In this document: positions 1,266 to 17,014 of the stretch, piece after piece
Layout of the letters: every line of letters begins with the position of its first letter
Numbering within the stretch: position 1 is the stretch's first letter
DNA from: an uncultured virus (IMG/VR IMGVR_UViG_3300046359_000084)
Taxonomy: Duplodnaviria; Heunggongvirae; Uroviricota; Caudoviricetes; Schitoviridae
Length of the DNA stretch: 20,000 bases
IMG/VR virus record: IMGVR_UViG_3300046359_000084
Strand: one strand, 5' to 3'
The notes under the pieces: generated by a model
What the model was told of the DNA's origin: nothing
The model's database searches: none
The model's input: only the letters and a program-made list of their open reading frames with translations
Position numbers and translations under genes: made by a program

Positions 1266-2861
1266 ATGATTAAACCAATAAGTGTTGATGAGTATTTAAA
1301 TAACATTGATTATCGAGATCTGAATGATAATTATATTCCTTCAGAATATGTACTTAAATATTTATCTTATATGAAATTAATTACTAAAGATAATCCTGAA
1401 TCGCACCCTACTCCAATAATACATTTAAAAATGTTAGATGCAATTATACAATCTAAAGGATTAGATATAATTAATTTAGTGTTTCGTGGTTCAGGTAAGA
1501 CATCATTGTTTTGTGAGTTCTTTTTACCTATCTTAGCAATAGAAGAAGAGTTACCTAACTTTGGAGAAGTTACTGGCGTATTATCTATTAATGATACTAT
1601 GGAGAATGGAGCTAAGTCTTTAAGAAAGAATATGGAATCACGTTATGATAAATCTCCATTCTTACAAGAGTGGTTACCTAAAGTTATATTTACTGATCCA
1701 TATATAGAGTTTACTAATAAAAGAGGACATCAATTAGGTATTAACTTGTTTGGTGTTACAAGCAGTATTCGTGGTAAAAAGATGTTTGGTAAACGCCCAC
1801 AGATTGCAATACTTGATGATTTGATTTCTGATAAGAACAGTCAATCAACTACAATTATGCAAGATATAAATGATACAGTTTATAAGAGTCTTGAACCAGC
1901 ATTAGATATGTCACAGAAAAAGATTATATGGAATGGTACTCCGTTTAATAAAGAAGATCCATTATATAAAGCAGCAGAATCTGGAGCATATTATGTTAAT
2001 GTGTTTCCTGTTTGTGAGAAGTTTCCTTGTGATAAACAAGACTTTAAAGGAGCATGGGAAGAAAGATTTAGTTATGATGCACTGTTAAAGACATATAATA
2101 AATTATCTTTAAATGGGCAATCAGGGGCATTTCAACAAGAAATGATGTTAAGAATATCATCACCAGAAGATAGATTGATCCAAGATAATGAGATTCGTTG
2201 GTTCAGTAGAGTGGATTTGTTAAAGCAAAAATATAATTTTAATTTTTATATAACAACAGACTTTGCTACATCGGAAAAGAAAACAGCAGATTATAATGTT
2301 ATATCTGTTTGGGCTTATAGTAATAATGGAGATTATTTCTGGGTAGATGGTATTTGTAAAAGACAGACTGTAGATGTTTCGATTGATCAGTTATTTGATT
2401 TTTGTCAGGAATATAAACCACAAACTGTAGGTATTGAGAGATCAGGACAACAAGGAGGATTTATATCTTGGATCGAAAAGGAACAGATGAGAAGAAATGT
2501 ATTTTTTAATATAGCTAGACAGAAGGGTAAAACAGAATTAGGTATTTACCCCACAGGGGATAAGTTAAGTAGGTTTAATTTAGTAGTACCATTGTTTAGA
2601 CAAGGTAAGATACATTTTCCTACTGAATTAAAAGAAACTACTACTGTATCAGAATTTCTAAGTGAAATTAATTTAGCTACAATTAATGGATTAAAGGGTA
2701 AAGATGATTGTTTAGATACAATATCTATGTTACAAGAAATGAATATGATTAAACCTTCATTAGATAGTAACACTAGAAAAAGTGATAATAGTAACAATAT
2801 TTATTTTGACAATAGTTTTGAAGATGAGTACAATCAAATAAATTCATATATAGTAGATTGA
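1266..2861 (+). CDS. terL: terminase large subunit (N4 gp68-like)
   Basis: Walker A-like FRGSGKTS, Walker B IAILDD, coupling motif NGTP, nuclease acidic motifs TTDFATSEKKTADY and DDCLD. Confidence 0.95.
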   Translation: MIKPISVDEYLNNIDYRDLNDNYIPSEYVLKYLSYMKLITKDNPESHPTPIIHLKMLDAIIQSKGLDIINLVFRGSGKTSLFCEFFLPILAIEEELPNFGEVTGVLSINDTMENGAKSLRKNMESRYDKSPFLQEWLPKVIFTDPYIEFTNKRGHQLGINLFGVTSSIRGKKMFGKRPQIAILDDLISDKNSQSTTIMQDINDTVYKSLEPALDMSQKKIIWNGTPFNKEDPLYKAAESGAYYVNVFPVCEKFPCDKQDFKGAWEERFSYDALLKTYNKLSLNGQSGAFQQEMMLRISSPEDRLIQDNEIRWFSRVDLLKQKYNFNFYITTDFATSEKKTADYNVISVWAYSNNGDYFWVDGICKRQTVDVSIDQLFDFCQEYKPQTVGIERSGQQGGFISWIEKEQMRRNVFFNIARQKGKTELGIYPTGDKLSRFNLVVPLFRQGKIHFPTELKETTTVSEFLSEINLATINGLKGKDDCLDTISMLQEMNMIKPSLDSNTRKSDNSNNIYFDNSFEDEYNQINSYIVD

Positions 2862-2863
2862 TA

Positions 2864-3559
2864 ATGTTAGCTAAAGACTTCTTAAAACAATTAGCTCTTA
2901 CACGATTAAAGAATACAGCTGCTGTAGATCTTAATCAAACTACTGGATTTAAAACAAATTTTATTGATCAATTAATTGTTTATACAAACGAAGCATTAAC
3001 AAACTTATATTCAGAATATTATTTGTTAAAGAAGTCTGTGTTGCTAAAGTTATTCCCTCCTTATACCGAATATTATTTACGCAAAGAATATGCTTTAAGT
3101 GATCCAACAGTTGTTACAAATAAATACATACAAGATACTGTTCATGCTCCATTTTATCCTTATATAATAAAGATAGTTAATATATTTGATCAGTATGGGT
3201 GTGACTTATTAATCAATGATAGATTAAATTGTTCATCTGTTCATACTATTTCATTTGACTGTGTTCAGTTTAGTCATTTAAATATTGGAGATTATTTCTC
3301 TGTAGTTTATTTAGCTGATCATATTCCTTTATCTCTTGGTTCAATAAATACAGATATTATATCACTACCTCCTATTATGTATGAGATGTTAAAATATTTA
3401 ATAGCTAGTAAATATTATTTAGACTTGGGTAAGAATAGTGCAGAAGCACAAAACAATTTAGTACAATACACTGAATTAGGTAATAAGATTATTCGTAGTA
3501 ATTTAACACCAGACTTTCAAGATAGTAATTATCATTTAGAACAAAAAGGATTTGTATAA
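2864..3559 (+). CDS. N4 gp67-like virion protein (head-to-tail adaptor)
   Basis: Follows terL. Motifs TNEALTNLYSEY, LPPIMYEMLKYLIASKYY and C-terminal LEQKGFV match my recollection of the gp67 family. ATG at 2864 is preferred over the TTG at 2858. Confidence 0.8.
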   Translation: MLAKDFLKQLALTRLKNTAAVDLNQTTGFKTNFIDQLIVYTNEALTNLYSEYYLLKKSVLLKLFPPYTEYYLRKEYALSDPTVVTNKYIQDTVHAPFYPYIIKIVNIFDQYGCDLLINDRLNCSSVHTISFDCVQFSHLNIGDYFSVVYLADHIPLSLGSINTDIISLPPIMYEMLKYLIASKYYLDLGKNSAEAQNNLVQYTELGNKIIRSNLTPDFQDSNYHLEQKGFV

Positions 3560-3828
3560 TGAGTTGGGAACGTACAAAAAGTTTATCATTAGTAAATGGA
3601 GTAGCTCAAGATACTCTAGTAGACGATTATGAATTGTACATACGAGCAGATCCAAATAATGCTGTTACAGTTTTATTAAAAATGAAACCTAATGATATAA
3701 ATGATACAGTGTTTGGTGTTATTTCAGCTGAAATTCCTGCTGGACAGTTATGGGTTGCTGGATCAAAATTAATTCGTGGTGATTTACAAGTTACTGGTGG
3801 TAATGCTTATGCAGTATTACGTTATTAA
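3559..3828 (+). CDS. small beta-rich virion protein (candidate spike/fibre base)
   Basis: 89 aa, coupled by a TAATG overlap. Alternating hydrophobic strands and LYIRADPNN...EIPAG are reminiscent of small capsid-decoration/spike-base proteins (inference). Confidence 0.6.
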   Translation: MSWERTKSLSLVNGVAQDTLVDDYELYIRADPNNAVTVLLKMKPNDINDTVFGVISAEIPAGQLWVAGSKLIRGDLQVTGGNAYAVLRY

Positions 3829-3840
3829 TATAGAGATAGT

Positions 3841-4038
3841 ATGTTTAAATTAGTTTTACAACCTGTATTAAGACTTCCTTTAAATAATGTGTTTGGTACT
3901 ATTATAGAAAGTACCTCTCCTTTATATTATTCTTTTAGTGATGGATTTTCTATAGGTTTTGAAGTTCTCGTTAATAGCCCACCACCTGAAGAAGGTAATA
4001 TTAGTTTTAGTAATGGATTCAGCGGAGGATTCGCATAA
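3841..4038 (+). CDS. 65-aa linker-like protein with two SFSxGFSxGF repeats
   Basis: AGAG RBS-like sequence. SFSDGFSIGF and SFSNGFSGGF are separated by a SPPPEEG spacer. Confidence 0.7.
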   Translation: MFKLVLQPVLRLPLNNVFGTIIESTSPLYYSFSDGFSIGFEVLVNSPPPEEGNISFSNGFSGGFA

Positions 4039-4500
4039 ATGACAGTTAAAGTAATTGCTACACTTAAAAGTGATATTGGAACATTTAAGACATTAGCAAC
4101 AAATAATATTAATGATAATACAAGTGGAGCAGTATCTCCTGCTGATGTACGAGTTCCTGTACAAAATGCTTTTGATAGTGTTGTTGATACTATTGATAGT
4201 GTTATTGATGTTAGTTGTCAAAAAGCAAGTAATCTATCTGATTTAGCTAGTGCTTCTACAGCAAGAACAAATTTAGGTTTAGCTATTGGTACGAATGTTC
4301 AAGCATATTCGAGTGTATTACAAGCAACTACTGCTTCATACACTACTGCATTAAATACAAAGTTAGGTATTACACCTACGTCAGATATTACTGGTATTAC
4401 TGGAGCTGATGCTATTACTAATATCGTTTCTTTGACCCAAGCAGAATATGACGCTATTGTAACAAAAAATCCTACAACATTTTATATTATAGTGGGTTAA
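4039..4500 (+). CDS. fibre arm/adaptor protein (153 aa)
   Basis: Contains fibre-shaft motifs ASNLSDLASASTARTNLGL and AIGTNVQAY, and the widespread phage fibre C-terminal motif LTQAEYDAIVTKNPTTFYII. GGAGG RBS at 4024-4028. Confidence 0.8.
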   Translation: MTVKVIATLKSDIGTFKTLATNNINDNTSGAVSPADVRVPVQNAFDSVVDTIDSVIDVSCQKASNLSDLASASTARTNLGLAIGTNVQAYSSVLQATTASYTTALNTKLGITPTSDITGITGADAITNIVSLTQAEYDAIVTKNPTTFYIIVG

Positions 4501-4501
4501 T

Positions 4502-6454
4502 ATGAAAATAGGTAATGGTGCTATTTCAGCTTGTTATGTAGGTAACACACAGATAGATAAAATTTATTTAGGTGCTGAGATTGCATACACAACATTAGTA
4601 ACACCGCCTTCTATGGTAAATCCTGTAGATGTTTCTCAAACATTTGCTACATATCATGCTGATAATGCAGCTAATACGGTTTATAATTATTCTAGTACGT
4701 TTACTGTAAATACAGCTACAAATGAAATTACTCCAGTAACTGACCCACAATTTGCAGCACCAGGATTACCTACGGGTTATCCTAAAGGTTTGGTTCAAGG
4801 AGCAATACCTGTAACATTTACAACAACAGGTACATTACCAGCACCATTACAGACTAATACAGAATATTTTTTATCACCTACAACTACAGGTGTTTATAAA
4901 GTTTATCCTAAAGCTACTGATGCTGACGCATCTTTGTTAGAAACTGTAATTACTGGTGAAAATATATTTCCTGCACAACATTATTTTCAAACACTTAATT
5001 CTATTGACATTACAACTTCTGGATCAGGTACACATACAGTTACACATGAGCAAACATTGTCACACCTTGTAGATGTGAAAAATGGTTATAATATGGTAAC
5101 ACCAAGTACAGTAAATAGACACGCATATATGATTCGTAAAACAGATGGTGATGGGGATAAATATTTATACACTGGTGGAGGATTATGTAAAAATGATCTT
5201 TCTGGTTGGTATAATATTTATGGTAAAACTTTACAGATGAATACAAATAAAGCAGCTGGTAGACTAGAGTGTGGATTGAAAAGATATGTTTGGTTAATGT
5301 TTGTTTGTAAAACAAGAAAGATTAAAACTAGAAATGTTAAAAAACATAAAGTAAATTTTTCTGACTTTAGTACATCAACAGGAGTAATTACTTTATCTGA
5401 AAGAAATAGTGAAGAAAAAGGTGTACATAAATTTACTACTGGAGATAAAGTAAGATTTAAATTAATTAATAGTTCTGTGTTACCGACAATTTTTGATACA
5501 ACAACAGATTATTTTATAAGAAAAATATCCTCTTATACTTTTACATTACATAATACATTAACAGATGCCCAAGCAAACTTACACATTATAATACCTAGTG
5601 CTATAGGTAGTGGTAGTTATATGTTGTATGCTCCTACACTTGTAGGACAAACACAAGTATTTAATGATTACATTGAATGGATTGAGCCAGATGGAGGAGG
5701 TAACACTTTAACTGTTAAAGATAATAATACTTTCTTACCATCTCCTAATGGTATTTTACTTGGTTCAGATTTCTATATTAGTGGTTCTACTCAAGGTGAA
5801 GTAACTCGTTTAGGTGCAGTAGATTTAGATAGATTAAGGTTATGGAGTCCACCTGGTACAACACTACCAGCTGAATTAACAAATGAAGGTTTATACTATA
5901 TTACTCGTAAACCTGGTCATGCTACAACTTGTCGATTACATAATACATTACAAGATGCTATTGATAGTGTAGGAGTAGCGACTAATAGTGTAAGTTTTAA
6001 GGGTATTAAGTTTACATCACAACCCACTGGATCAGTATATTTTCACCACGATGATGGTAAATCTCGTATTATTGCTTCGCTTGAAGCAGGATCTCCTAAT
6101 GGTAGTTCATCAACATTAGCAGAGATTCCTTATGATAGGAAACATATTGTTTTTGTAGCTATTGATTATAACCCGCCTGTAGGGTCAAACTCTATTGCTT
6201 TTATTAAAGTTAATAGAGGTCCTATTAACTCCGTTACATTAAATAGAGCTAAAGGCTTAACAAGAGCATCTACAAACACTGATGCAGATGGATCTCCTTG
6301 GACATTCTTTAATTCAGCACAAGGTCATGTTCCTGTTGATATGGATTTATATTCTTTATCTATGGGTTCTAGTAATACAACGGCATTAACAGAAACTGAA
6401 ATTGAGAATATGATGAATTGGTATGCAGATAAATATACTATTTCAAGTTATTAA
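4502..6454 (+). CDS. putative fibre tip/adhesin protein with three internal repeat domains and LamG-like segments
   Basis: N-terminal YVGNTQIDKIYLG motif. Three repeats of V-x-F...LP..L..(T)xY(F/Y)...L(H/Y)..xxDA. C-terminal ALTETEIENMMNWYADKY is typical of phage LamG-like domains. Confidence 0.75.
   Translation: MKIGNGAISACYVGNTQIDKIYLGAEIAYTTLVTPPSMVNPVDVSQTFATYHADNAANTVYNYSSTFTVNTATNEITPVTDPQFAAPGLPTGYPKGLVQGAIPVTFTTTGTLPAPLQTNTEYFLSPTTTGVYKVYPKATDADASLLETVITGENIFPAQHYFQTLNSIDITTSGSGTHTVTHEQTLSHLVDVKNGYNMVTPSTVNRHAYMIRKTDGDGDKYLYTGGGLCKNDLSGWYNIYGKTLQMNTNKAAGRLECGLKRYVWLMFVCKTRKIKTRNVKKHKVNFSDFSTSTGVITLSERNSEEKGVHKFTTGDKVRFKLINSSVLPTIFDTTTDYFIRKISSYTFTLHNTLTDAQANLHIIIPSAIGSGSYMLYAPTLVGQTQVFNDYIEWIEPDGGGNTLTVKDNNTFLPSPNGILLGSDFYISGSTQGEVTRLGAVDLDRLRLWSPPGTTLPAELTNEGLYYITRKPGHATTCRLHNTLQDAIDSVGVATNSVSFKGIKFTSQPTGSVYFHHDDGKSRIIASLEAGSPNGSSSTLAEIPYDRKHIVFVAIDYNPPVGSNSIAFIKVNRGPINSVTLNRAKGLTRASTNTDADGSPWTFFNSAQGHVPVDMDLYSLSMGSSNTTALTETEIENMMNWYADKYTISSY
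4700..6045 (+). repeat. three diverged intragenic domain repeats (~4700-5045, ~5350-5630, ~5770-6045)
   Basis: Protein-level repeats, plus an exact 16-nt repeat attacataatacatta at 5545-5560 and 5935-5950 (LHNTL). Unit boundaries are approximate. Confidence 0.75.
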
Positions 6455-6481
6455 AATAAAGTACAGTAGGTAATAAAGATT

Positions 6482-8680
6482 ATGAAATTAGGTATAAATA
6501 ATATTGCAAAATATTATGTTGGTAGTAATCAGGTGGATAAAATATATAAAGGTGTGAACCAAGTTTATACAAAAGCACCTTTCTTAGCTAATGATTTTAC
6601 TTATTGGTTTGATTTTAATTCTGGTTCAAATGTGTATGATGATTTTGCTTTTGACAGTTTATCTTATGCTCCTAATTTAGTTAGTGGTTATAGATTTTTT
6701 GAACAACCTGTAAAAGATTACCAACCATTTAAATTATCTGATGGTATTAATTTTGGTAATACTACGGATATAGCAGATAGGTTTATGGAATTATATCCTT
6801 TACCTGGATTTACAGAAAATAAAACTGGATTATTTTTTGCTTGTAATATTTTTACAAGTGGTAATGGTACATTACTTTCATTAAATACTTTTGAGATTCG
6901 TGGTGCTAGAGGTAAATTTTCTCTTAATGGATTAAAACCACAAATATCTATGAGTCCTAATGGAGCAGATACTGGAGCAATAACAGTTATTAAACTTGCA
7001 ACAAATGCCCTTGCTGCTGATACATGGTACACATTAGGATTTTTAATTGATAGAGAAAATGATATAGCAAAAATATATGTTAACGGTAATGTTGTTGATA
7101 CAAGTACGGTATCAGCACCTTATACCTCTACTGCTACATTCCCACTTAAACAAGTTATATTAGGGGCAGATGGGATTGAGGGAGCTTCTGGTTCAAAATT
7201 TGATGGTGTATTGTCTGAAATGATTATTCAAGATTCACTTGAATTAGCGTACATTACCAATCAATTAGCTTACTTACAAAGTACAAGATTAGATATTCCA
7301 GATGCTCCAGTAATTACAGCAACTACTGCTAATAATAGTGCTATTATATCTTTTACTGCTCCTAATGCACATAATAAAGCTATTACTGATTACTCGTATC
7401 AGTATAAATTAAATTCTAGTGGTACATGGTTAGATTTTACAGATAGTGTATCATCAACAGCTGGTATAACAATTACAGGATTAACTAATGATTTGTTGTA
7501 CAACTTTAGAGTTAAAGCAACAAATGTTATTGGTGTAGGTTTATGGTCTAATATTGCAGAAACTACACCTACTGCTAATCCAGGACCTCCAGATGCTATT
7601 GATGATTTACAAGTAGTTTCTGGTTCAAATAGTTTACTTGTTTTATGGACAGCACCTAATGTTAATGGTTATCCAATTACAACACATAAAGTTTATTATA
7701 GAATTGCTGGTTCAGGCAATGCTTACACATTATTTGCTAATATTCCTGCTGGATCAGGAACATTACAAACATTAATTACAAGTCTTACGAATAATGTTTC
7801 TTATGAAGTAAATGTTACATCTGTTAATTCTCAAGGTGAGAGTGCAGAAGCTACACCAACTGTAGCAGAAACTCCAGTTACTGCAAGAAACTTACAAACT
7901 GTATCAGGGTTAGAATCTTGTGTGATGGATATAGATTTAACAGTATTGGCTTCTTATAATGGAACAGGTACTGTATTAAAGAATTTAGTAACATCTCCTG
8001 CTGATGGTTCAGGACAAACTGCTTATAATATGCAATTTGGTGATGGATCTCTTGCTACAACATTCCCTGTATTTAGTGGAATTGCTGGTACAGCAAGTGG
8101 TAAAATAACTTTTGATGGTGGTGATCATTTAACGCTTGTTGGTGCTAATACAACATTTTTAAACAATATTCATAAAAGTTCTGGTGGATCAGCATTTACT
8201 ATTGTAGCATTTTTTGAAGCTATTAAAGATGGTGCAAGTTCTCAAATATTATTTACTACAAAAAATGGTTCTAATGAAGTTGGTATAGACGGTTATGTAA
8301 GTAGCTCAGAAGTATTAAGAATGGGTCAACGAGGGGGAACAACTAATGTTACTTCTCCAACAACAGCAGCAACGGCTGTATTAAATACTCCTACTTACAT
8401 AGGTTTTGGTTGTAATGTTAATGGTGGAACGAATACTTGTGCTTTCTGGAGTGATTCAACAACACAAGCTAACTCTACATTAAATTATAATAGTACAACA
8501 ACTAATGCTGCTCAAAAATTACACATGATGGGTCAAGGTAGTGGTACTGGTGCAGCAACAGGTCGGTTTGTAAACAATACAGTATTAAAAGCTGTAGCAT
8601 TATTTAACACTAGATTATCTAATTCACAAATGGCATTAGTAGTAGCAGAATATAACGCTAGACATGGGAATATTTATTAA
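6482..8680 (+). CDS. putative fibre tip/adhesin protein: LamG-like + 2x fibronectin type III + LamG-like
   Basis: N-terminal YVGSNQVDKIYKG. LamG hallmarks DTWYTLGF, AKIYVNG and FDGVLSEMII. FN3 motifs PDAP...ITGLTN..YNFRVKATN..G.G.WS and PDAI...WTAP...LTNNVSYEVNVTSVNSQGES. Second LamG-like domain from ASYNGTGT to ALFNTRLS. Confidence 0.85.
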   Translation: MKLGINNIAKYYVGSNQVDKIYKGVNQVYTKAPFLANDFTYWFDFNSGSNVYDDFAFDSLSYAPNLVSGYRFFEQPVKDYQPFKLSDGINFGNTTDIADRFMELYPLPGFTENKTGLFFACNIFTSGNGTLLSLNTFEIRGARGKFSLNGLKPQISMSPNGADTGAITVIKLATNALAADTWYTLGFLIDRENDIAKIYVNGNVVDTSTVSAPYTSTATFPLKQVILGADGIEGASGSKFDGVLSEMIIQDSLELAYITNQLAYLQSTRLDIPDAPVITATTANNSAIISFTAPNAHNKAITDYSYQYKLNSSGTWLDFTDSVSSTAGITITGLTNDLLYNFRVKATNVIGVGLWSNIAETTPTANPGPPDAIDDLQVVSGSNSLLVLWTAPNVNGYPITTHKVYYRIAGSGNAYTLFANIPAGSGTLQTLITSLTNNVSYEVNVTSVNSQGESAEATPTVAETPVTARNLQTVSGLESCVMDIDLTVLASYNGTGTVLKNLVTSPADGSGQTAYNMQFGDGSLATTFPVFSGIAGTASGKITFDGGDHLTLVGANTTFLNNIHKSSGGSAFTIVAFFEAIKDGASSQILFTTKNGSNEVGIDGYVSSSEVLRMGQRGGTTNVTSPTTAATAVLNTPTYIGFGCNVNGGTNTCAFWSDSTTQANSTLNYNSTTTNAAQKLHMMGQGSGTGAATGRFVNNTVLKAVALFNTRLSNSQMALVVAEYNARHGNIY

Positions 8681-10693
8681 ATGACAGAAGCTACAGAATT
8701 TTGGTATATTAAATGTAAAACAGATACTCTGAGATCTGTAAATGATAGTACGCCTATAGTTAATAGTACAGTAGGTGATAATGTTTATCCTACTACATTA
8801 ACTCAACGGCAAACTATTGAAGCTATTGGTACATTAGTTGGTAATAAAACTGTTGCTTTATGTAGGTCAGCAGATCTTGCTGAAGCTTATAGTAGTGCGT
8901 TACCTCCACCAAAAAGTACAGTATTAAAAGTATCAGCCGCATTAAAAAATGCTTTATTACCTTATTTAGATGATGCTGAAGAAGCTACTGCTTCAGCAAC
9001 TAATATTATTAGCGGTACTGGTAATGGTACTCCAAACCAACAACATATGCACCCTTCACTATTTAATGTTTATATAGCAGGAGACAGTATTGATTATGGT
9101 GTAGGAATTAAAACACCTACATCTACAGAAATTTATACGCTTAATTTTGATGGTATGGAGGAATTTCATTATTCAAGATTAGCTATAGAAGCTGTTGATA
9201 CAAATGTAAGATCAGAATCTTATTTTAATTCTAAAGAACCAGTGAGTCCTGAAGGTGATAGACTGTTTCTTGGTGATAAAATAGCAGTACATAAAATCGC
9301 TGTTGGTGGTGCAAGTTATGCAAATACTGTAGGTACAGAAGATCAAGTAGATTTTATCCATGTCTTTAATTTAAAATACAATCAGATATACAAGACTATG
9401 AATCTAAATACTAATAGTGCTATCTTAATAGGCTTTGGTACAAATGATACTGCTTATGATACATCACTAACTGCCCAAGAGTTATTTGATATAGAAAAAG
9501 ATGCTATATTAAAATTTAAAGAAGATCACCCGAATACAAAAATTATTGCAGTAACTGATATAAGACGAACAGATGATACTACTTTGAACCAACGAATACA
9601 TGATTTTAATCAAAAAAGAAGAGATCCTGCAACAGGTTGTTTAAGTTATGGTGTAGATTATCTTTGTGATTTTGCTGATCCTAGTAAAACACACGCTAAC
9701 TTTCACCCACTAACAGGTACAATTACTACTGGTGCTAATGGGTTATTCGCTGATGGCGATGTAGTTCACCCTAGTAAGTTAGGACATTATTATTTAAGTA
9801 AACCTTTAATACCTATACTTAGTGATTTATTAGGTGTACAAAGTGTTACATTAAAACGAGTACATATAACAAATAATATTGTACGAGAACATAGTTCTAT
9901 AGGTACGGTTGTTGGCACATTGTTTAATTTTCAAGATGGTTCAATAGTATCTCTTGTTAATGGTGCTGGCGGTAGATTTTCTCTATCTGGTAATAATATT
10001 TTAGTTAATGCTGATATAGATTTTAGTGAAGGGTACAAACATAATATTACTATCAGAGAAACATTAGCTTCTGTTAGTAATAGTCCAAAAGATACTGTTA
10101 TTAATATTTTAATTGGGAATCTTGCTCCTGTGTACCCAATAGCAAGATTCCCATTAGATCCAGCTTTATCAGCTACAGCTGCTGGCAGACCTCAAATTAC
10201 TGGATCTCCTTTTACTGGTTCAGTATTGACTGCTGATAATGGTACATGGTTTCATACTGTAGATTCTTACGTTGTACAATGGAAACGTGATGGTGTTAAT
10301 TTTACAGGTACAACAACATATACATATTTACTTACACCAACAGATGTAGGTTGTGAATTTACATTTGAAGTGGTAGCTATTAATAGTAATGGTTCAACTA
10401 CAAATGTTTCATTAGGTTTAATGATTGGACCTGTGTTAGATGTACCAACTGTTAGTGGTGAAAATGTAAGTTTATTATGGGCATTATACAATGACACTGG
10501 TGTAACTAATTATATTATTGAATATAAATTAGCAGCTGCTGATGATTGGATTGTATTTAATGATGGCGTATCTACAGTTAAATCAACTACAGTAACTGGA
10601 CTTACAACAGGTACATATAATTTTAGAGTTAAAGCTGTTAAAGGTAATAAAACGTCAACAGCATCAAATATACAAAATGCAATAGTTAATTAG
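8681..10693 (+). CDS. SGNH/GDSL esterase with cadherin-like, Ig-like and FN3 domains
   Basis: SGNH blocks IAGDS, AVGG, GFGTND and DVVHP are all intact. Cadherin-like VREHSSIGTVVGTL...FSLSGNNI..IDF. Ig-like PQITG...GSVLTADNGTW...QWKRDG. FN3 TVTGLTTGTYNFRVKAV. Confidence 0.85.
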   Translation: MTEATEFWYIKCKTDTLRSVNDSTPIVNSTVGDNVYPTTLTQRQTIEAIGTLVGNKTVALCRSADLAEAYSSALPPPKSTVLKVSAALKNALLPYLDDAEEATASATNIISGTGNGTPNQQHMHPSLFNVYIAGDSIDYGVGIKTPTSTEIYTLNFDGMEEFHYSRLAIEAVDTNVRSESYFNSKEPVSPEGDRLFLGDKIAVHKIAVGGASYANTVGTEDQVDFIHVFNLKYNQIYKTMNLNTNSAILIGFGTNDTAYDTSLTAQELFDIEKDAILKFKEDHPNTKIIAVTDIRRTDDTTLNQRIHDFNQKRRDPATGCLSYGVDYLCDFADPSKTHANFHPLTGTITTGANGLFADGDVVHPSKLGHYYLSKPLIPILSDLLGVQSVTLKRVHITNNIVREHSSIGTVVGTLFNFQDGSIVSLVNGAGGRFSLSGNNILVNADIDFSEGYKHNITIRETLASVSNSPKDTVINILIGNLAPVYPIARFPLDPALSATAAGRPQITGSPFTGSVLTADNGTWFHTVDSYVVQWKRDGVNFTGTTTYTYLLTPTDVGCEFTFEVVAINSNGSTTNVSLGLMIGPVLDVPTVSGENVSLLWALYNDTGVTNYIIEYKLAAADDWIVFNDGVSTVKSTTVTGLTTGTYNFRVKAVKGNKTSTASNIQNAIVN

Positions 10694-10702
10694 AGGTAAA
10701 TT

Positions 10703-11125
10703 ATGTCAACACAACAATCTATATATGAAGTAGCATTAAAAGAACGTAATGTAGCAGAAGTTATTGGTTTAGTTAATAATCCTAAAATTGTTGAGTACCA
10801 CTCTGCTACAACACTTAAAGCTAAAGATGATGAAACTTCATGGTGTAGTTCATTTGTTAATTGGTGCTGTAAACAAGTAAATGTTAAAGGTACTGGTTCA
10901 GCAGCTGCAAGATCATGGTTAAATTGGGGTAAAGAAGTTAAAGTTCTTTACCTTGGTTGTATTGTTGTATTAAAGCGTGGTAATTCAGTATGGCAAGGTC
11001 ATGTTGGATTTTATGCTGGCAAACAACGAGATACACATATATTAGTATATGGTGGAAACCAAAAAAATAAAGTATGTTATCTTTGGTTAAAGAAAGATAA
11101 TGTACTTGGTTATAGAGAAGTTTAA
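10703..11125 (+). CDS. TIGR02594-family (NlpC/P60/CHAP-like) peptidoglycan hydrolase, probable endolysin
   Basis: DDETSWCSSFVNWC (catalytic Cys), AARSWLNWG, GHVGF (catalytic His) and GGNQ. GAGG RBS. Sits in the lysis position. Confidence 0.88.
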   Translation: MSTQQSIYEVALKERNVAEVIGLVNNPKIVEYHSATTLKAKDDETSWCSSFVNWCCKQVNVKGTGSAAARSWLNWGKEVKVLYLGCIVVLKRGNSVWQGHVGFYAGKQRDTHILVYGGNQKNKVCYLWLKKDNVLGYREV

Positions 11126-11157
11126 ATACTATATCAAATTCAAGTAAGGACAATAAA

Positions 11158-11508
11158 TTGAATAAACAACCTATATCAGTATCTTTTTATCAACACTTGT
11201 GTGATATTACATTTTATATACAAACACACTATCAGTATTATTCAGGAGCAGTCATTGGAATGTTGTTAGATAATAAAAGATGGGAAAAATACGGTTTTTT
11301 AAAATATGTCTTTGTTAGTATTATTGTCGCTCATCTTACAGAAATTATTTTAAAAGATAATGGTACAAGTCTACATATTAGTATTTTAATTTGTACAGTA
11401 GTTGGTTTAGTAGGACATGCTACATTAAGATACACAACAGATGAAGCATTACCAAAAGTGTTAAAAGCAATTACTGATAGAATACTAGATAAGATTAATA
11501 AAAAATAA
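11158..11508 (+). CDS. probable holin
   Basis: TTG start with AAGGA RBS. Two to three hydrophobic segments (SGAVIGMLL, FLKYVFVSIIVAHL, ISILICTVVGLVG), basic C-terminus, adjacent to the endolysin. Confidence 0.65.
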   Translation: MNKQPISVSFYQHLCDITFYIQTHYQYYSGAVIGMLLDNKRWEKYGFLKYVFVSIIVAHLTEIILKDNGTSLHISILICTVVGLVGHATLRYTTDEALPKVLKAITDRILDKINKK

Positions 11509-11568: not shown

Positions 11569-12294
11569 ATGTTAAATCCTTATGCTAATGTTAATACATT
11601 ATTAAATGATCAGTTTAATAAATCATACGAAGTTGTAAAAACTGTGTATGATAATTTATCTGTTTTAATTTCAGTTAATAATAGAATTACTGTAATTAAT
11701 GATAATACTGTATTAAGAGCATTTACTTCTAGCTATAATGGACAAGTTATATTCTTAGCAGGTGTAAAAAATATAGAGTATAAGGTAGATTATAGTGATT
11801 CAGCATCACTTGATAATGGAGATACAGTCATTATTGGTGCTGATGGTAAACGATGGAAAAAAATTTTAGTTAAATTTACAGATATAGAAAATGTTGAAAA
11901 TAATGTTGGTTTTGTGCCTGAATTAAAAGGTACTGATGCAGTAGGTACAGCTACTTATACAAGAGCATTTGGTACATATAGCAGATTAAATAGTTTTGTT
12001 ACTGGTTCATTAGTGTTAGATTGGGATTTCTTTACAGGAGATGGTGATGCACAAATTCATGGATTACCTTATGTAGCACAAAGTTCCTCTAGTGATTTAA
12101 GATATGGTTGTAGTGTTGCTACTTATGATAGTTTATCGTTACCTCCTGGTAAAGTTTTAAGTGGTTATATTAAAGATAGTGAAGATTTTATACGTCTTAC
12201 CGCTGTAGATAATATAGCAGCAGTACACGTTCAATGTGCTAGTCAAGCAAGTGGTTCAGGTAAAATTTGGATTTCATTTACATACCAAGTTTAA
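11569..12294 (+). CDS. short N4 gp66-like tail appendage/fibre protein
   Basis: N-terminus LLNDQFNKSYEVVKTVYDNL resembles the N4-like appendage anchor. DSASLDNGDTVIIGADGKRWK is a tailspike N-terminal-type domain motif. FVPELKG...GTYSRLNSFV...IHGLPY is a common fibre C-terminal domain. Confidence 0.7.
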   Translation: MLNPYANVNTLLNDQFNKSYEVVKTVYDNLSVLISVNNRITVINDNTVLRAFTSSYNGQVIFLAGVKNIEYKVDYSDSASLDNGDTVIIGADGKRWKKILVKFTDIENVENNVGFVPELKGTDAVGTATYTRAFGTYSRLNSFVTGSLVLDWDFFTGDGDAQIHGLPYVAQSSSSDLRYGCSVATYDSLSLPPGKVLSGYIKDSEDFIRLTAVDNIAAVHVQCASQASGSGKIWISFTYQV

Positions 12295-12318: not shown

Positions 12319-14460
12319 ATGGTTGATGTGAAACAAAAGTTTACAAGTTGGAAACAAGAACCTTCTTTATTAGATTTAAAACAAGATTATAATAATTGCT
12401 TAAATAACCATAAACAGTTTGTTTCTATGATCCAAAAATGGGAAGATTTAAAGAATGTTGTAGGACAATATAAACCTACTAAAAGACAAGGTAAATCTTC
12501 TCTTCAACCTAAGACTATTCAGAAACAATTTGAATGGAGGTATCCTAGTTTAACTGAACCATTTTTAAATACACCTAATTTATTTAAAGCATTACCAATT
12601 ACATTTGAAGATGTTAAAGGTGCAAGACATAATGAATTAGTTTTAAATTGGCAATTCAATACAAAGATTAATAAAGTAAAATATTTTGATCAATTTGTAA
12701 GACGTAATGTTGATCAAGGAATATGTATTAAACAGGTTTGTTGGATCAGAGAAACTAAAGAAGTAGAAGTTGATGTACCTATCTATAGTTACACTGAAAT
12801 TGAAGATGAAGAAGCATTTAATCAGATCCAAGAACTAATACAGTTAAAAAATATTAATCCTAATGAGTTTAGTAATGTAGATCCTTTGTTACAAGAAAGT
12901 GTAAAATATTTTGAAGAAAATAATATTATCACTCAAGTTGTTATTGTTGATTATACAAAAGAAAAACAAGAAAAGATTATTAAGAACCAACCTGATATAA
13001 AGATTCATCACCCTAAGAATGTTTATTTTGATCCTTCTTGTGGAGGAGATTTTGAAAAGAGTAATTTTATAATTGTATCTTATGAAACATCTTTAGCAGA
13101 ATTAAAGAAAAAAGGTATTTATCAAAACTTAGAAAGCATTAATATTAGTAATGATGTCTTATCTGATACAGACCATAAATCAACAAATACAGATCAGAAC
13201 TTTAATTTTAAAGATAAAAGTAGAAGTAGATTAGTTGCTTATGAGTATTGGGGTAATTATGATATTAATGATTATGGTTATTTAGTACCTATTGTTGCTA
13301 CTTGGGTTGGAGAAACATTAATCCGCTTAGAAGAAAATCCATATCCAGAAGGAATGAATCCTTTTGTCATTACACAATATAGACCAATTCTTGATTCTAT
13401 TTATGGTGAATCAGATGCTGAGTTACTAGAAGATACACAGAAAACTATTGGTGCTTTAACAAGAGGTATTGTTGATACATTTGCTTCTGCATCAAATGGT
13501 CAAGTAGGTATTGCTCAAGGATTTATTGATGTACAAAATAAATTAAGAAAAAACCAAGGATTAGATTATGAGTTTACTGCTAATAGTATTCCTCAACAAG
13601 CTATCTATGAACATAAGTTTCCTGAAGTAAGTCAGAGTACAATAATATTTTTACAACAACAGAACCAAGAAGCTGAATCATTAACTGGTAAAAGTTCTTT
13701 TAATCAAGGTATTAATGGTAATGCTTTAGGTGATGTAGCTGCTGGTATTAAAGGTACATTGAAAGCTACTACTGAAAGAGAATCTGCTATATTAAGAAGG
13801 TTGGTTCAAGGTACAATAGAAGTTGCTAGAAAGATTACTATTCTTAATGCTGTATATTTATCAGAAAAAGAAGTTATTAGATTAACAAATGATTCTGAAT
13901 TTGTAACAGTTAGAAGAGAAGATCTTGTTGGTGAATTTGATATTGATATTAAAATTGCTGTACCAGAAATTAATGAAAAGAAAGCTAATGATTTAGCATT
14001 TATGTTACAAACAATAGGACCTAGTTTATTACAAACTATCGGACCTGAGGCTGGTATAGAGTTTAATAAATTAATACTAGGTGAGATTGCTTATCTTAAA
14101 CAAATGCCTGAATTAGAACAAAAGATTAAAGCATTTACATTACCACCTAAAGAACCAAGTCCAGAAGAACAACAAATGATGCAATTAGAACTTCAAATGA
14201 AACAGTTAGAAATAGCTAAGTTACAGTCTGAAGTTGCTGTTAATGAAGCTAAAGTTAAAGAATTAAATGCTAAAGCTGATGCTGTATCTATTGATAATGA
14301 AGAAACTTATACAGGTGTTAAACATAATAAAGAAGTTGTTAAACAACAAGCACAAGCTAAAGGTAATCAGAGTTTAGAGATCACTAAAGGATTAATGAAT
14401 AAAGATATTGATGGTAAAGATCTTGCTGCTGCAATACAATATAATGAAACTACAGAGTAA
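12319..14460 (+). CDS. portal protein (N4 gp59-like)
   Basis: WKQEPSLLDLKQD, QFEWRYPSLTEPF, VLNWQFNTKINKV, AYEYWG, IRLEENPYP and YGESDAELL. Gln-rich coiled-coil C-terminus. Confidence 0.95.
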   Translation: MVDVKQKFTSWKQEPSLLDLKQDYNNCLNNHKQFVSMIQKWEDLKNVVGQYKPTKRQGKSSLQPKTIQKQFEWRYPSLTEPFLNTPNLFKALPITFEDVKGARHNELVLNWQFNTKINKVKYFDQFVRRNVDQGICIKQVCWIRETKEVEVDVPIYSYTEIEDEEAFNQIQELIQLKNINPNEFSNVDPLLQESVKYFEENNIITQVVIVDYTKEKQEKIIKNQPDIKIHHPKNVYFDPSCGGDFEKSNFIIVSYETSLAELKKKGIYQNLESINISNDVLSDTDHKSTNTDQNFNFKDKSRSRLVAYEYWGNYDINDYGYLVPIVATWVGETLIRLEENPYPEGMNPFVITQYRPILDSIYGESDAELLEDTQKTIGALTRGIVDTFASASNGQVGIAQGFIDVQNKLRKNQGLDYEFTANSIPQQAIYEHKFPEVSQSTIIFLQQQNQEAESLTGKSSFNQGINGNALGDVAAGIKGTLKATTERESAILRRLVQGTIEVARKITILNAVYLSEKEVIRLTNDSEFVTVRREDLVGEFDIDIKIAVPEINEKKANDLAFMLQTIGPSLLQTIGPEAGIEFNKLILGEIAYLKQMPELEQKIKAFTLPPKEPSPEEQQMMQLELQMKQLEIAKLQSEVAVNEAKVKELNAKADAVSIDNEETYTGVKHNKEVVKQQAQAKGNQSLEITKGLMNKDIDGKDLAAAIQYNETTE

Positions 14461-15817: not shown

Positions 15818-17014
15818 ATGGTAATGTCGTATAATGCACCTCCAGGATCAGCTTCTGATATTGGTAGTCAACTAACTACTTATGAGATTGCTCGCCAAGC
15901 AATCTATGATAATAAACATATTATGGTTTTTTCACAGTTGTCAACAACTATGGAAATGCCTAAGAATAAAGGTAAAACAATTAAAGTACGTCAATATTAT
16001 CCATTACTTGACTCTCGTAACGTCAATGATGAAGGTATTAATGCCGCAGGTACTACTATTGCTAACGGTAACTTGATTGGTTCATCAAAAGATATTGGTG
16101 TTATTCCTTCTTTAATGCCTGTTCTTGATGAAGCTGGTGGACGTAAAAACCGAGTTGGTTTTACTCGTGCTGATGTTCAAGGTACAATTAGCCAATATGG
16201 TTTCTTTTTTGAATATACCAATGAGTCGCTACAATTTGATTCTGATCCAGAATTGTTAATGCACATTACTCGTGAAGCAACAAATGCTGCTATGGAATTA
16301 GAAGAGCATTTGATTCAATTAGATTTGATTGATGGTGCTGGTGTTGAATCTTACTGTGGTGGTGCAACATCTGTTGTTACTATGAGTGGTAACTTAGGAC
16401 AATCAGCAGATATTGTATCGGTAGCTAAACTTCTTGAAGTTAATAAAATTCTTGATAAAAACCGTTTGTCAAAGAATACAACTATTATTACTGGTACTCG
16501 TTTAGTAGATACTAAAACTGTTCAAGCTGCTCGTTATGCGTATATTGGACATGATTTAGAAAATACAATTCGTGGATTAGTTGATAGACACAATAGACCT
16601 GCATTTATTGGTGTAGAACAGTATGCTTCTGGTTCAACTGTAGCGAATGGTGAAATTGGTGCAGTAGGTCCATTTAGATTTATTGTTGTTCATCAAATGC
16701 TTGCTTATCCAAATAGAGGTGCTTTAGTTGGTACTTCTGGAACAGCCAATGCTGGATACAAAGCTAGCGGTACACGTTATGATGTTTTCCCAATTCTTAT
16801 TGTTGGTGGAGATTCATTTGTTACTATCGGTTTCCAGGATAATGGTAAATCAAGTAAGTTTGTTCATATCCATAAAAAACCTGGTATGGAAACAGCTGAT
16901 GTAAACAATCCTTATGGCTTAAAAGGATTCCATTCTATTCGTTGGTGGCACGGTACTGTTATTAAACGTCCTGAGTGGATTGCTGTAATACACACTCTTG
17001 CAGAAGATTTATAA
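15818..17014 (+). CDS. major capsid protein (N4 gp56-like)
   Basis: MPKNKGKTIKV, PLLDSRNVNDEGINA, GSSKDIG, GGRKNRVGFTR, GEIGAVGPFRFI, YDVFPIL and PYGLKGF..IRWW match the N4 capsid. AAGGA RBS. Confidence 0.97.
   Translation: MVMSYNAPPGSASDIGSQLTTYEIARQAIYDNKHIMVFSQLSTTMEMPKNKGKTIKVRQYYPLLDSRNVNDEGINAAGTTIANGNLIGSSKDIGVIPSLMPVLDEAGGRKNRVGFTRADVQGTISQYGFFFEYTNESLQFDSDPELLMHITREATNAAMELEEHLIQLDLIDGAGVESYCGGATSVVTMSGNLGQSADIVSVAKLLEVNKILDKNRLSKNTTIITGTRLVDTKTVQAARYAYIGHDLENTIRGLVDRHNRPAFIGVEQYASGSTVANGEIGAVGPFRFIVVHQMLAYPNRGALVGTSGTANAGYKASGTRYDVFPILIVGGDSFVTIGFQDNGKSSKFVHIHKKPGMETADVNNPYGLKGFHSIRWWHGTVIKRPEWIAVIHTLAEDL

Follow-up and report, generated by a model that had tools for sequence, protein, structure and literature searches.

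A probable host-recognition module with a candidate socket-and-plug tip joint in an uncultured N4-like phage

A stretch of 20,000 nucleotides (nt) from the uncultured virus IMG/VR IMGVR_UViG_3300046359_000084, hereafter the window, is part of a 46,356-base viral record and raises the question of what stands in the place of the N4 fibre genes gp64, gp65 and gp66. Six closely spaced genes fill that interval (positions 3559..10693), and it is to be asked what they encode and which of their products assemble with one another. An initial annotation had read the block as a modular, possibly branched appendage in which gene order mirrors an assembly chain (base, linker, arm and interchangeable tips) joined by short terminal peptides. 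Our analysis partly supports that reading, which correctly identified the kind of module and the last step of its assembly; the first steps lack support and the novelty was overstated. On balance, we think it probable that the interval and a fibre gene behind the lysis genes (p241) together form the module by which a divergent N4-like phage recognises its host, with a shaft and two plug-bearing tips, and that this module replaces N4 gp64-gp66. The six genes, named by the length of their products in amino acids (aa), are as follows:

3559..3828, + strand: p89, 89 aa
3841..4038, + strand: p65, 65 aa
4039..4500, + strand: p153, 153 aa, putative short fibre shaft
4502..6454, + strand: p650, 650 aa, putative tip protein 1
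6482..8680, + strand: p732, 732 aa, putative tip protein 2
8681..10693, + strand: p670, 670 aa, putative SGNH-type esterase with Ig-like and FN3 domains

These six open reading frames (ORFs) are real genes, not chance frames. They are tightly packed on one strand, as had been described, with intergenic gaps of -1 to 27 nt, and a relative with 85-97% amino-acid identity keeps all six at equal lengths. The ratio of nonsynonymous to synonymous substitution rates (dN/dS) is 0.09-0.24 in five of the genes; the value of 0.67 for p65 says little, since it comes from only 14 substitutions and both of the motifs in p65 are free of nucleotide changes. The sequence features singled out by the initial annotation were also found: p65 contains two SFSxGFSxGF motifs (SFSDGFSIGF and SFSNGFSGGF), p153 ends in TQAEYDAIVTKNPTTFYIIVG, and p650 and p732 begin with a common peptide in which 15 of 30 residues are identical (expectation value [E] 5e-5).

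The best-supported link of the block, judged from the pairing of genes, is that between the C-terminus of p153 and the N-termini of the tips, which would bind as socket and plug. p153 has one fibre repeat, NLSDL..ARTNLGL, that matches the short tail fibre gp92 (PDB 9zd7); the protein shows weak matches to tail-fibre PHROGs and a dN/dS of 0.09. Its residues 127-152, of 153, correspond to PF24243 (Phage_tail_C, "Phage tail tip domain"; E 9e-12) with a score of 44.6 bits, the cut-off being 23.7. The plug is built from repeats of the form phi-phi-G-x-x-x-phi, and p650 and p732 each have glycine at positions 4, 14 and 24; among 18 aligned examples, 15 contain three repeats and three contain one. 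The candidate docking elements in the window are:

4417..4494, + strand: C-terminal docking motif (socket) of p153, residues 127-152, PF24243
4502..4591, + strand: N-terminal docking peptide (plug) of p650, residues 1-30, three 10-residue repeats
6482..6571, + strand: plug of p732, residues 1-30, matched by the plug hidden Markov model (HMM)

We surveyed the socket in 80 viral loci retrieved with p153, which comprise 4373 ORFs. There were 18 non-self matches to the socket pattern; 17 of these end 1-2 residues before the stop codon and one is internal. A plug ORF follows directly after the socket in 16 of the 17 cases, starting from 1 nt inside the stop codon to 12 nt beyond it. The plug HMM, when built without p732, recognised residues 1-30 of p732 (E 5.5e-7) and otherwise matched only socket-following ORFs in this set. 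A reciprocal scan of a viral collection, using a degenerate DNA pattern for the third plug repeat, gave 37 matches, of which 31 were plug N-termini and six were chance occurrences. A socket ORF lies directly upstream of 29 of the 31 plugs (21 recognised by pattern and eight by eye in a three-frame print); for the other two, the socket is located one 111-aa gene further upstream. This intervening ORF occupies positions 1565-1900 of locus L136 and the matching place in L135. Cultured actinophages also have the pair, as read by eye in Mycobacterium phage Pharaoh (gp7/gp8) and Gordonia phage Chidiebere (gp29/gp30).

Database searches gave different pictures for the two halves of the pair. For the socket, all 17 aligned examples match PF24243; for the plug, no Pfam family was matched by any of 18. 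Our literature search found no paper naming PF24243, and no Schitoviridae with the joint of PF24243 socket and triple-decamer plug were present among the matches listed and in the organism tallies. In profile searches of the PDB, the socket retrieved only 9d93 ("tail collar fibers, gp4"; E 0.13), and no relevant entry was obtained with the plug. The 356-aa gp4 of 9d93 has a socket-like motif at residues 336-353, and socket-bearing fibres may therefore also occur at the collar. A complex prediction with alignments, combining three copies of p153 residues 94-153 with three copies of p650 residues 1-50, gave a score of 0.24 (mark 0.32) in a run without controls, an outcome that weighs on binding in neither direction.

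An alternative is that the gene junction is mainly a recombination joint: sequence similarity would be maintained where the shaft gene ends and the tip gene starts, allowing tips to be exchanged by homologous recombination, and the peptides would not be required to bind. The conserved stretch does cross the gene boundary and is followed by very different bodies, shuffled modules occur in relatives of p650 (P0007, P0045 and P0083), and host-recognition modules cross phage families, as exemplified by Alteromonas schitovirus A5 in the available part of its description (PMC10579305). However, the motifs are conserved as amino acids across very different hosts and composition, a pattern that is inexplicable by DNA homology and argues for selection on the protein. 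Furthermore, the plug always begins at the first residue and the socket always ends 1-2 residues short of the C-terminus, which fits free docking termini. Conservation at the protein level hence appears to fit docking better than a mere recombination joint. We consider the latter unlikely as the main explanation, and the two readings are compatible with each other.

The surroundings of the block agree with a cassette for host recognition by the virion, set in the structural operon of an N4-like phage. Its borders, and the fibre gene beyond the downstream border, are:

2858..3559, + strand: gp67-like tail adaptor, 233 aa, upstream border of the module (phrog_2125, E 9e-46)
10703..11508, + strand: lysis genes, comprising a CHAP endolysin (10703-11125) and a holin-like gene (11158-11508)
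11569..12294, + strand: p241, short fibre with a likely adaptor-binding N-terminal motif, SYEVVKTVYDNL, at residues 19-30

The adaptor was also aligned by tblastn to N4 gp67 (E 1.5e-18) and to the gp50 region of Shigella phage B2. In the accessible text of a cryo-electron microscopy study, the 234-residue adaptors of Moo19 and B2 are modelled with the N-terminal 10-74 residues of the tailspike attached (PMC11654681). The gene order in N4 is gp67 (adaptor-like), gp66, gp65, gp64, holin and endolysin, and portal; that in B2 is adaptor gp50, tailspike gp49 and fibre gp48; and that in Erwinia phage Pastis is adaptor, coiled-coil protein, two glycoside hydrolases and lysis genes. Given these orders and the published fibres of G7C, Possum and B2, the interval corresponds to the usual exchangeable adsorption module of the family. 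The N4 proteins themselves are absent, as the initial annotation had held: tblastn searches with gp64, gp65 and gp66 gave best E values of at least 0.27 in the window and the 46-kb contig, the latter estimated as 63% complete. The lysis set also differs, since N4 has a muramidase, a holin and a spanin, whereas the window has a CHAP endolysin (26.3 bits against a cut-off of 26) and a weak LydA-type holin candidate (E 3e-3).

To look for the protein that binds the adaptor, we took the first fibre gene downstream of the adaptor in each of eight Schitoviridae and built an anchor HMM from the N-terminal 60 residues of their products. None of the six interval proteins was matched, and the block therefore lacks a recognisable adaptor-bound fibre. 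The model instead matched p241 at residues 19-41 (E 3.5e-3) and its orthologue (1.5e-4), the next match being at 0.47. The underlying motif, (I/L)GxAYxVVK within the first ~45 residues, is common to the eight first fibres and N4 gp66, the N-terminus of which reads IGNAYYVVK; the p241 version is identical to residues 23-34 of B2 gp49 at 10 of 12 positions. Further along p241, residues 47-98 match the neck region of the tail fibre 5w5p (E 1e-3) and residues 115-210 match a fibre of the cyanopodophage Synechococcus phage S-CBP3. It is likely, though not certain, that p241 carries the adaptor-binding motif of Schitoviridae fibres. If this is correct, the adaptor-bound fibre is outside 3559..10693 and the fibre kit is split by the lysis genes. 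The p241 gene is flanked by the lysis genes and the portal gene; the anchor gene of N4, B2, Pastis and five others adjoins the adaptor gene.

The early steps of the proposed chain, from the 89-aa through the 65-aa to the 153-aa protein, fared less well than the step from arm to tip. When co-occurrence in other genomes was checked, the p153 and p650 motifs recurred together and SFSxGFSxGF did not: the latter is present in none of the 4373 ORFs (~80 fibre loci) outside its own clade, and a looser form of the pattern gives 0-1 matches per shuffle of these ORFs. p65 has two homologues, both from its own clade, with no longer fused forms found and nothing usable among PHROGs at E <= 10. p89 has three homologues, again all from its own clade, with a dN/dS of 0.24; it has no match in Pfam, PHROG or NCBIfam, meets only unnamed clusters in the ESM Atlas (0.90 or below), and was compared with the B2 head fibre gp45 with an hhalign probability of 0.2. 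The p89 ORF is genuine, and its description as a beta protein is based on an AlphaFold model from three sequences with a predicted local distance difference test score (pLDDT) of 43; we regard it as probably all-beta.

The N-terminus of p65 provides a further clue. An HMM built from the N-terminal 20-24 residues of P0007, P0052 and P0039, which are relatives of p650 with a p65-like start peptide, matches p65 residues 1-19 (E 2e-3) and its orthologues (4e-4 to 9e-4), with the next match among 4500 sequences at 0.51; in pairwise alignment, p65 is 53% identical to P0052 residues 1-19 (E 1e-4). Because of this match, p65 looks like a docking peptide that is fused elsewhere and free-standing here, and it could alternatively be a remnant of a P0007-type fibre gene. 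A layout that recalls p65/p153/p650 occurs at positions 5624-6942 of locus L074 and 5611-6905 of L076, where a 77-81-aa ORF with a GxGLGM N-terminus precedes an 80-89-aa socket protein and a plug tip; this ORF has no sequence relation to p65.

These observations bear on the reading of the block as a single chain, that is, one branched appendage with p89 as base, p65 as linker, p153 as arm and p650, p732 and p670 as tips, all connected through terminal peptides. Gene order and tight packing are in line with it, as are the socket/plug co-occurrence for the arm-to-tip step, the use of the p65 N-terminal peptide as the start of large fibre proteins elsewhere, and the similar three-tier layout in L074 and L076. 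However, among the surveyed ORFs the SFSxGFSxGF motif is confined to its own clade, p89 and p65 lack relatives beyond it, homology to p65 is absent from the small ORFs of L074 and L076, no plug was found in p670, and it is p241, rather than p89 or p65, that has the likely adaptor-binding motif. A single chain is thus improbable.

Of the two putative tips, p650 has no Pfam, PHROG or NCBIfam family, and 122 relatives (E <= 1e-3) were found among 1.84 billion representatives. Its AlphaFold model from 57 sequences has a pLDDT of 88.9 and a predicted template modelling score of 0.88; residues 1-30 are unstructured in this monomer model (pLDDT < 50). When the model was compared with 48,161 chains by VIA-align, the top match was the tailspike of cyanopodophage Pan3 (9vyh_q; Z 17.9, root-mean-square deviation [rmsd] 3.3, 218 residues aligned, model residues 39-647), followed at Z 12-17 by concanavalin A-like (ConA-like) lectin domains of glycosidases, toxin binding domains, CBM40s and pentraxins. 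The matches at Z 15-18, to ConA-like domains and a phage tailspike, cover 200-237 residues at rmsd 3.3-3.6. Foldseek found nothing usable in the PDB (template modelling score [TM] <= 0.13) and only low-TM phage lectin-type proteins in BFVD. On the strength of the model, p650 is predicted to be a ConA-like lectin jelly roll with inserted small domains. An element of ~45-65 residues (LPxPL..T.YY....LH.T..DA) occurs three times in p650, at ~100-145, 320-375 and 455-500, and 5-7 times in the ~1000-aa proteins P0088-P0119; it matches no Pfam family.

p732 has no likeness to p650 beyond the first 30 residues. Its layout is plug, LamG, FN3, FN3 and a C-terminal ConA-like domain, with Laminin_G_3 (PF13385) at 30.7 bits against a cut-off of 27.6 and fn3 at E 5e-18. 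P0007, a 1196-aa protein, aligns through its C-terminal part with p732 residues 273-732 at 44% identity; it combines a p65-like N-terminus, p670-like FN3 (47%), the body of p650 (50%) and the last 460 residues of p732 (44%). The modules of the window have therefore been shuffled at FN3 linkers in a relative. The genomic locus of P0007 and P0052 was not found in IMG/VR or in a metagenome scan. By eye, the N-termini of other p650 relatives include a plug (P0045), a socket-like motif in cis (P0083), and signal peptides and a dockerin (P0008 and others). The p650 body represents a large lectin-type family, with 122 representatives, that is common to phage fibres and secreted bacterial proteins.

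The initial annotation had described p670 as an SGNH/cadherin/Ig/FN3 protein. The set of SGNH blocks is intact (GDS 134, GTND 253, DVVH 360) and one FN3 domain is above the Pfam cut-off; the Ig-like part was detected through PHROG only (phrog_26223, E 9e-12; Hoc-like, E 3e-4), and no cadherin family matched at E <= 0.01. The plug HMM found no plug in p670, and its N-terminus had no usable match in the ESM Atlas. We judge it very unlikely that p670, and perhaps p732, are Hoc-type capsid decorations or free enzymes or adhesins and that p65 is a left-over 5' piece of a P0007-like fibre gene: the Ig-like and FN3 domains of p670, its Hoc-like PHROG match, its lack of a plug or recognisable anchor, and the dN/dS and P0007-type N-terminus of p65 agree with this, but p732 has a plug at residue 1, esterases are tail proteins in G7C, Possum, Moo19 and B2, and p65 keeps its length and both motifs in a diverged relative, its ORF abutting the p153 start codon.

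We therefore return to the host-recognition module with a shaft and two tips. In this model, p241 would seat on the dodecameric gp67-like adaptor, as suggested by the B2 and Moo19 structures, and p153 would form a short trimeric shaft with its last ~40 residues as the PF24243 docking domain. p650 and p732 would dock through the three decamers of the plug onto three sockets. Three repeats per chain point to one monomeric tip per trimeric shaft as the most likely arrangement, and p650 and p732, as alternatives on the same shaft, would give two fibre types with different glycan specificity rather than one branched fibre. p670 would most likely deacetylate a surface polysaccharide, like G7C gp63.1 and Possum gp66, and p65 would serve as a free-standing linker peptide. 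More tentatively, the PF24243 socket and the triple-decamer plug may constitute a portable docking standard, extending from actinophages to marine podophages, by which a trimeric shaft takes any plug-bearing monomeric tip; the two unrelated lectin tips per shaft would here yield mixed fibres or a host-range shift by tip ratio, with p65, consisting of docking peptides only, acting as a free adapter between virion and shaft.

Several points weigh against this model. With respect to the joint, a small hydrophobic ORF and no plug follows the socket in locus L018, no plug gene follows the socket gene gp053 of Cellulophaga phage phi17:2, p650 separates p732 from the socket, and none of the other loci with long flanks has two plugs per socket. 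Both samples contain near-identical loci (L020/L022/L023 in one and about ten in the second), so that the counts represent fewer independent lineages than they suggest. That p153 is a trimer and the tips are monomers is assumed. The anchor motif in p241 was matched over a short stretch (E 3.5e-3) and a tblastn search of phages with the N-terminal 45 aa gave no match, for which reasons we regard the anchor as likely rather than certain. For p670, the Lipase_GDSL_2 match (E 5.5e-5, 24.2 bits) is below the cut-off of 32.9, and a PDB sequence search (E <= 0.1) gave FN3 only, with no match to G7C gp63.1. Finally, p89 and p65 are left unexplained, and the viral record is incomplete, at an estimated 63%.

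The claim that such an appendage is new among N4-like phages did not hold. The published descriptions, as far as accessible, report branched gp63.1/gp66 fibres in G7C, with gp63.1 an SGNH deacetylase, and the gp66/gp67 pair in Possum (PMC9569702), as well as a two-protein spike complex with esterase activity in Shigella phage B2 (gp48/gp49; PMC11654681). The block resembles these systems in its genome position after the adaptor and by the lysis genes, in the presence of a putative SGNH esterase (p670 has the SGNH catalytic blocks of the G7C gp63.1 type; PDB 4QNL), in having several fibre or spike proteins that would be assembled on one another, and in a likely N-terminal adaptor-binding motif. 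In contrast, the searches found no sequence relation of the six proteins to these fibres, the candidate joint here is of the PF24243-plug type, and the likely anchor is on a separate 241-aa gene behind the lysis genes. The same interval in N4 holds gp64, the sheath protein gp65 and the appendage protein gp66, and p241 resembles the anchor motif of gp66; the bodies of the three N4 proteins nevertheless have no homologue in the window or the 46-kb contig. The module is thus of an ordinary kind with unusual parts, branched esterase fibres being already known in N4-like phages.

Parallels for the joint come from further afield. In phages with T-even gp37/gp38-type fibres, a monomeric adhesin sits on the tip of a trimeric fibre; the likeness, by arrangement only, would hold if one tip monomer caps a trimeric shaft and sets specificity, and the difference is that two alternative tips are encoded side by side here. 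PF24243 itself covers the C-terminal motif of p153, whereas the N-terminal peptide of the next gene is without a Pfam family. In mycobacteriophage Mysterious, a three-strand triangular fold at the N-terminus of gp41 inserts into the trimer of the outer tail fibre gp40, according to the accessible part of a cryo-electron microscopy preprint (PMC13252515). This is the geometry proposed for p153 with p650 or p732, likened through the published description rather than through sequence; Mysterious differs in being described there as an actinophage siphovirus with this pair in its baseplate and gp41 as a hexameric ring.

If socket and plug bind, they provide a simple way to tell from sequence which phage genes contribute to the same fibre. 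Such a rule would be usable in uncultured phages of several morphotypes and would mark a natural joint for swaps of receptor-binding tips. For N4-like phages, the block would be a further way to replace the gp64-gp66 apparatus, with the adaptor-binding fibre kept apart from the rest of the kit.

The source phage is a distant uncultured member of the Schitoviridae (N4-like), as assigned from its sequence. Homologues of gp69, gp68 and gp67 and of gp59 to gp53 are collinear with the structural operon of the family. By tblastn, identity to N4 is 49% for gp69, 53% for gp68, 28% for gp67 and 45% for gp59, and N4 gp54, gp55 and gp57 were likewise matched. The capsid protein matched 482 phage records, nearly all from Schitoviridae, at identities of at most 49.7%. 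The + strand holds all large genes, and the G+C content of the contig is 25-37%. The remaining structural genes in the window are:

584-1264: gp69-like gene (PHROG/Pfam)
1266-2861: large terminase (PHROG/Pfam)
12319-14460: portal (SU10_portal, E 3e-124)
15818-17014: major capsid protein (PHROG/Pfam)
structural operon: gp57-, gp55-, gp54- and gp53-like genes (PHROG and Pfam)

No tRNA genes were found, and a scan for promoters and terminators gave counts at or below those expected from shuffling. A protein identical to p89 (cluster P0001) is present on 18 contigs, the longest of which has 83,612 bases compared to 70 kb for N4; the full genome may therefore exceed the usual size for the family.

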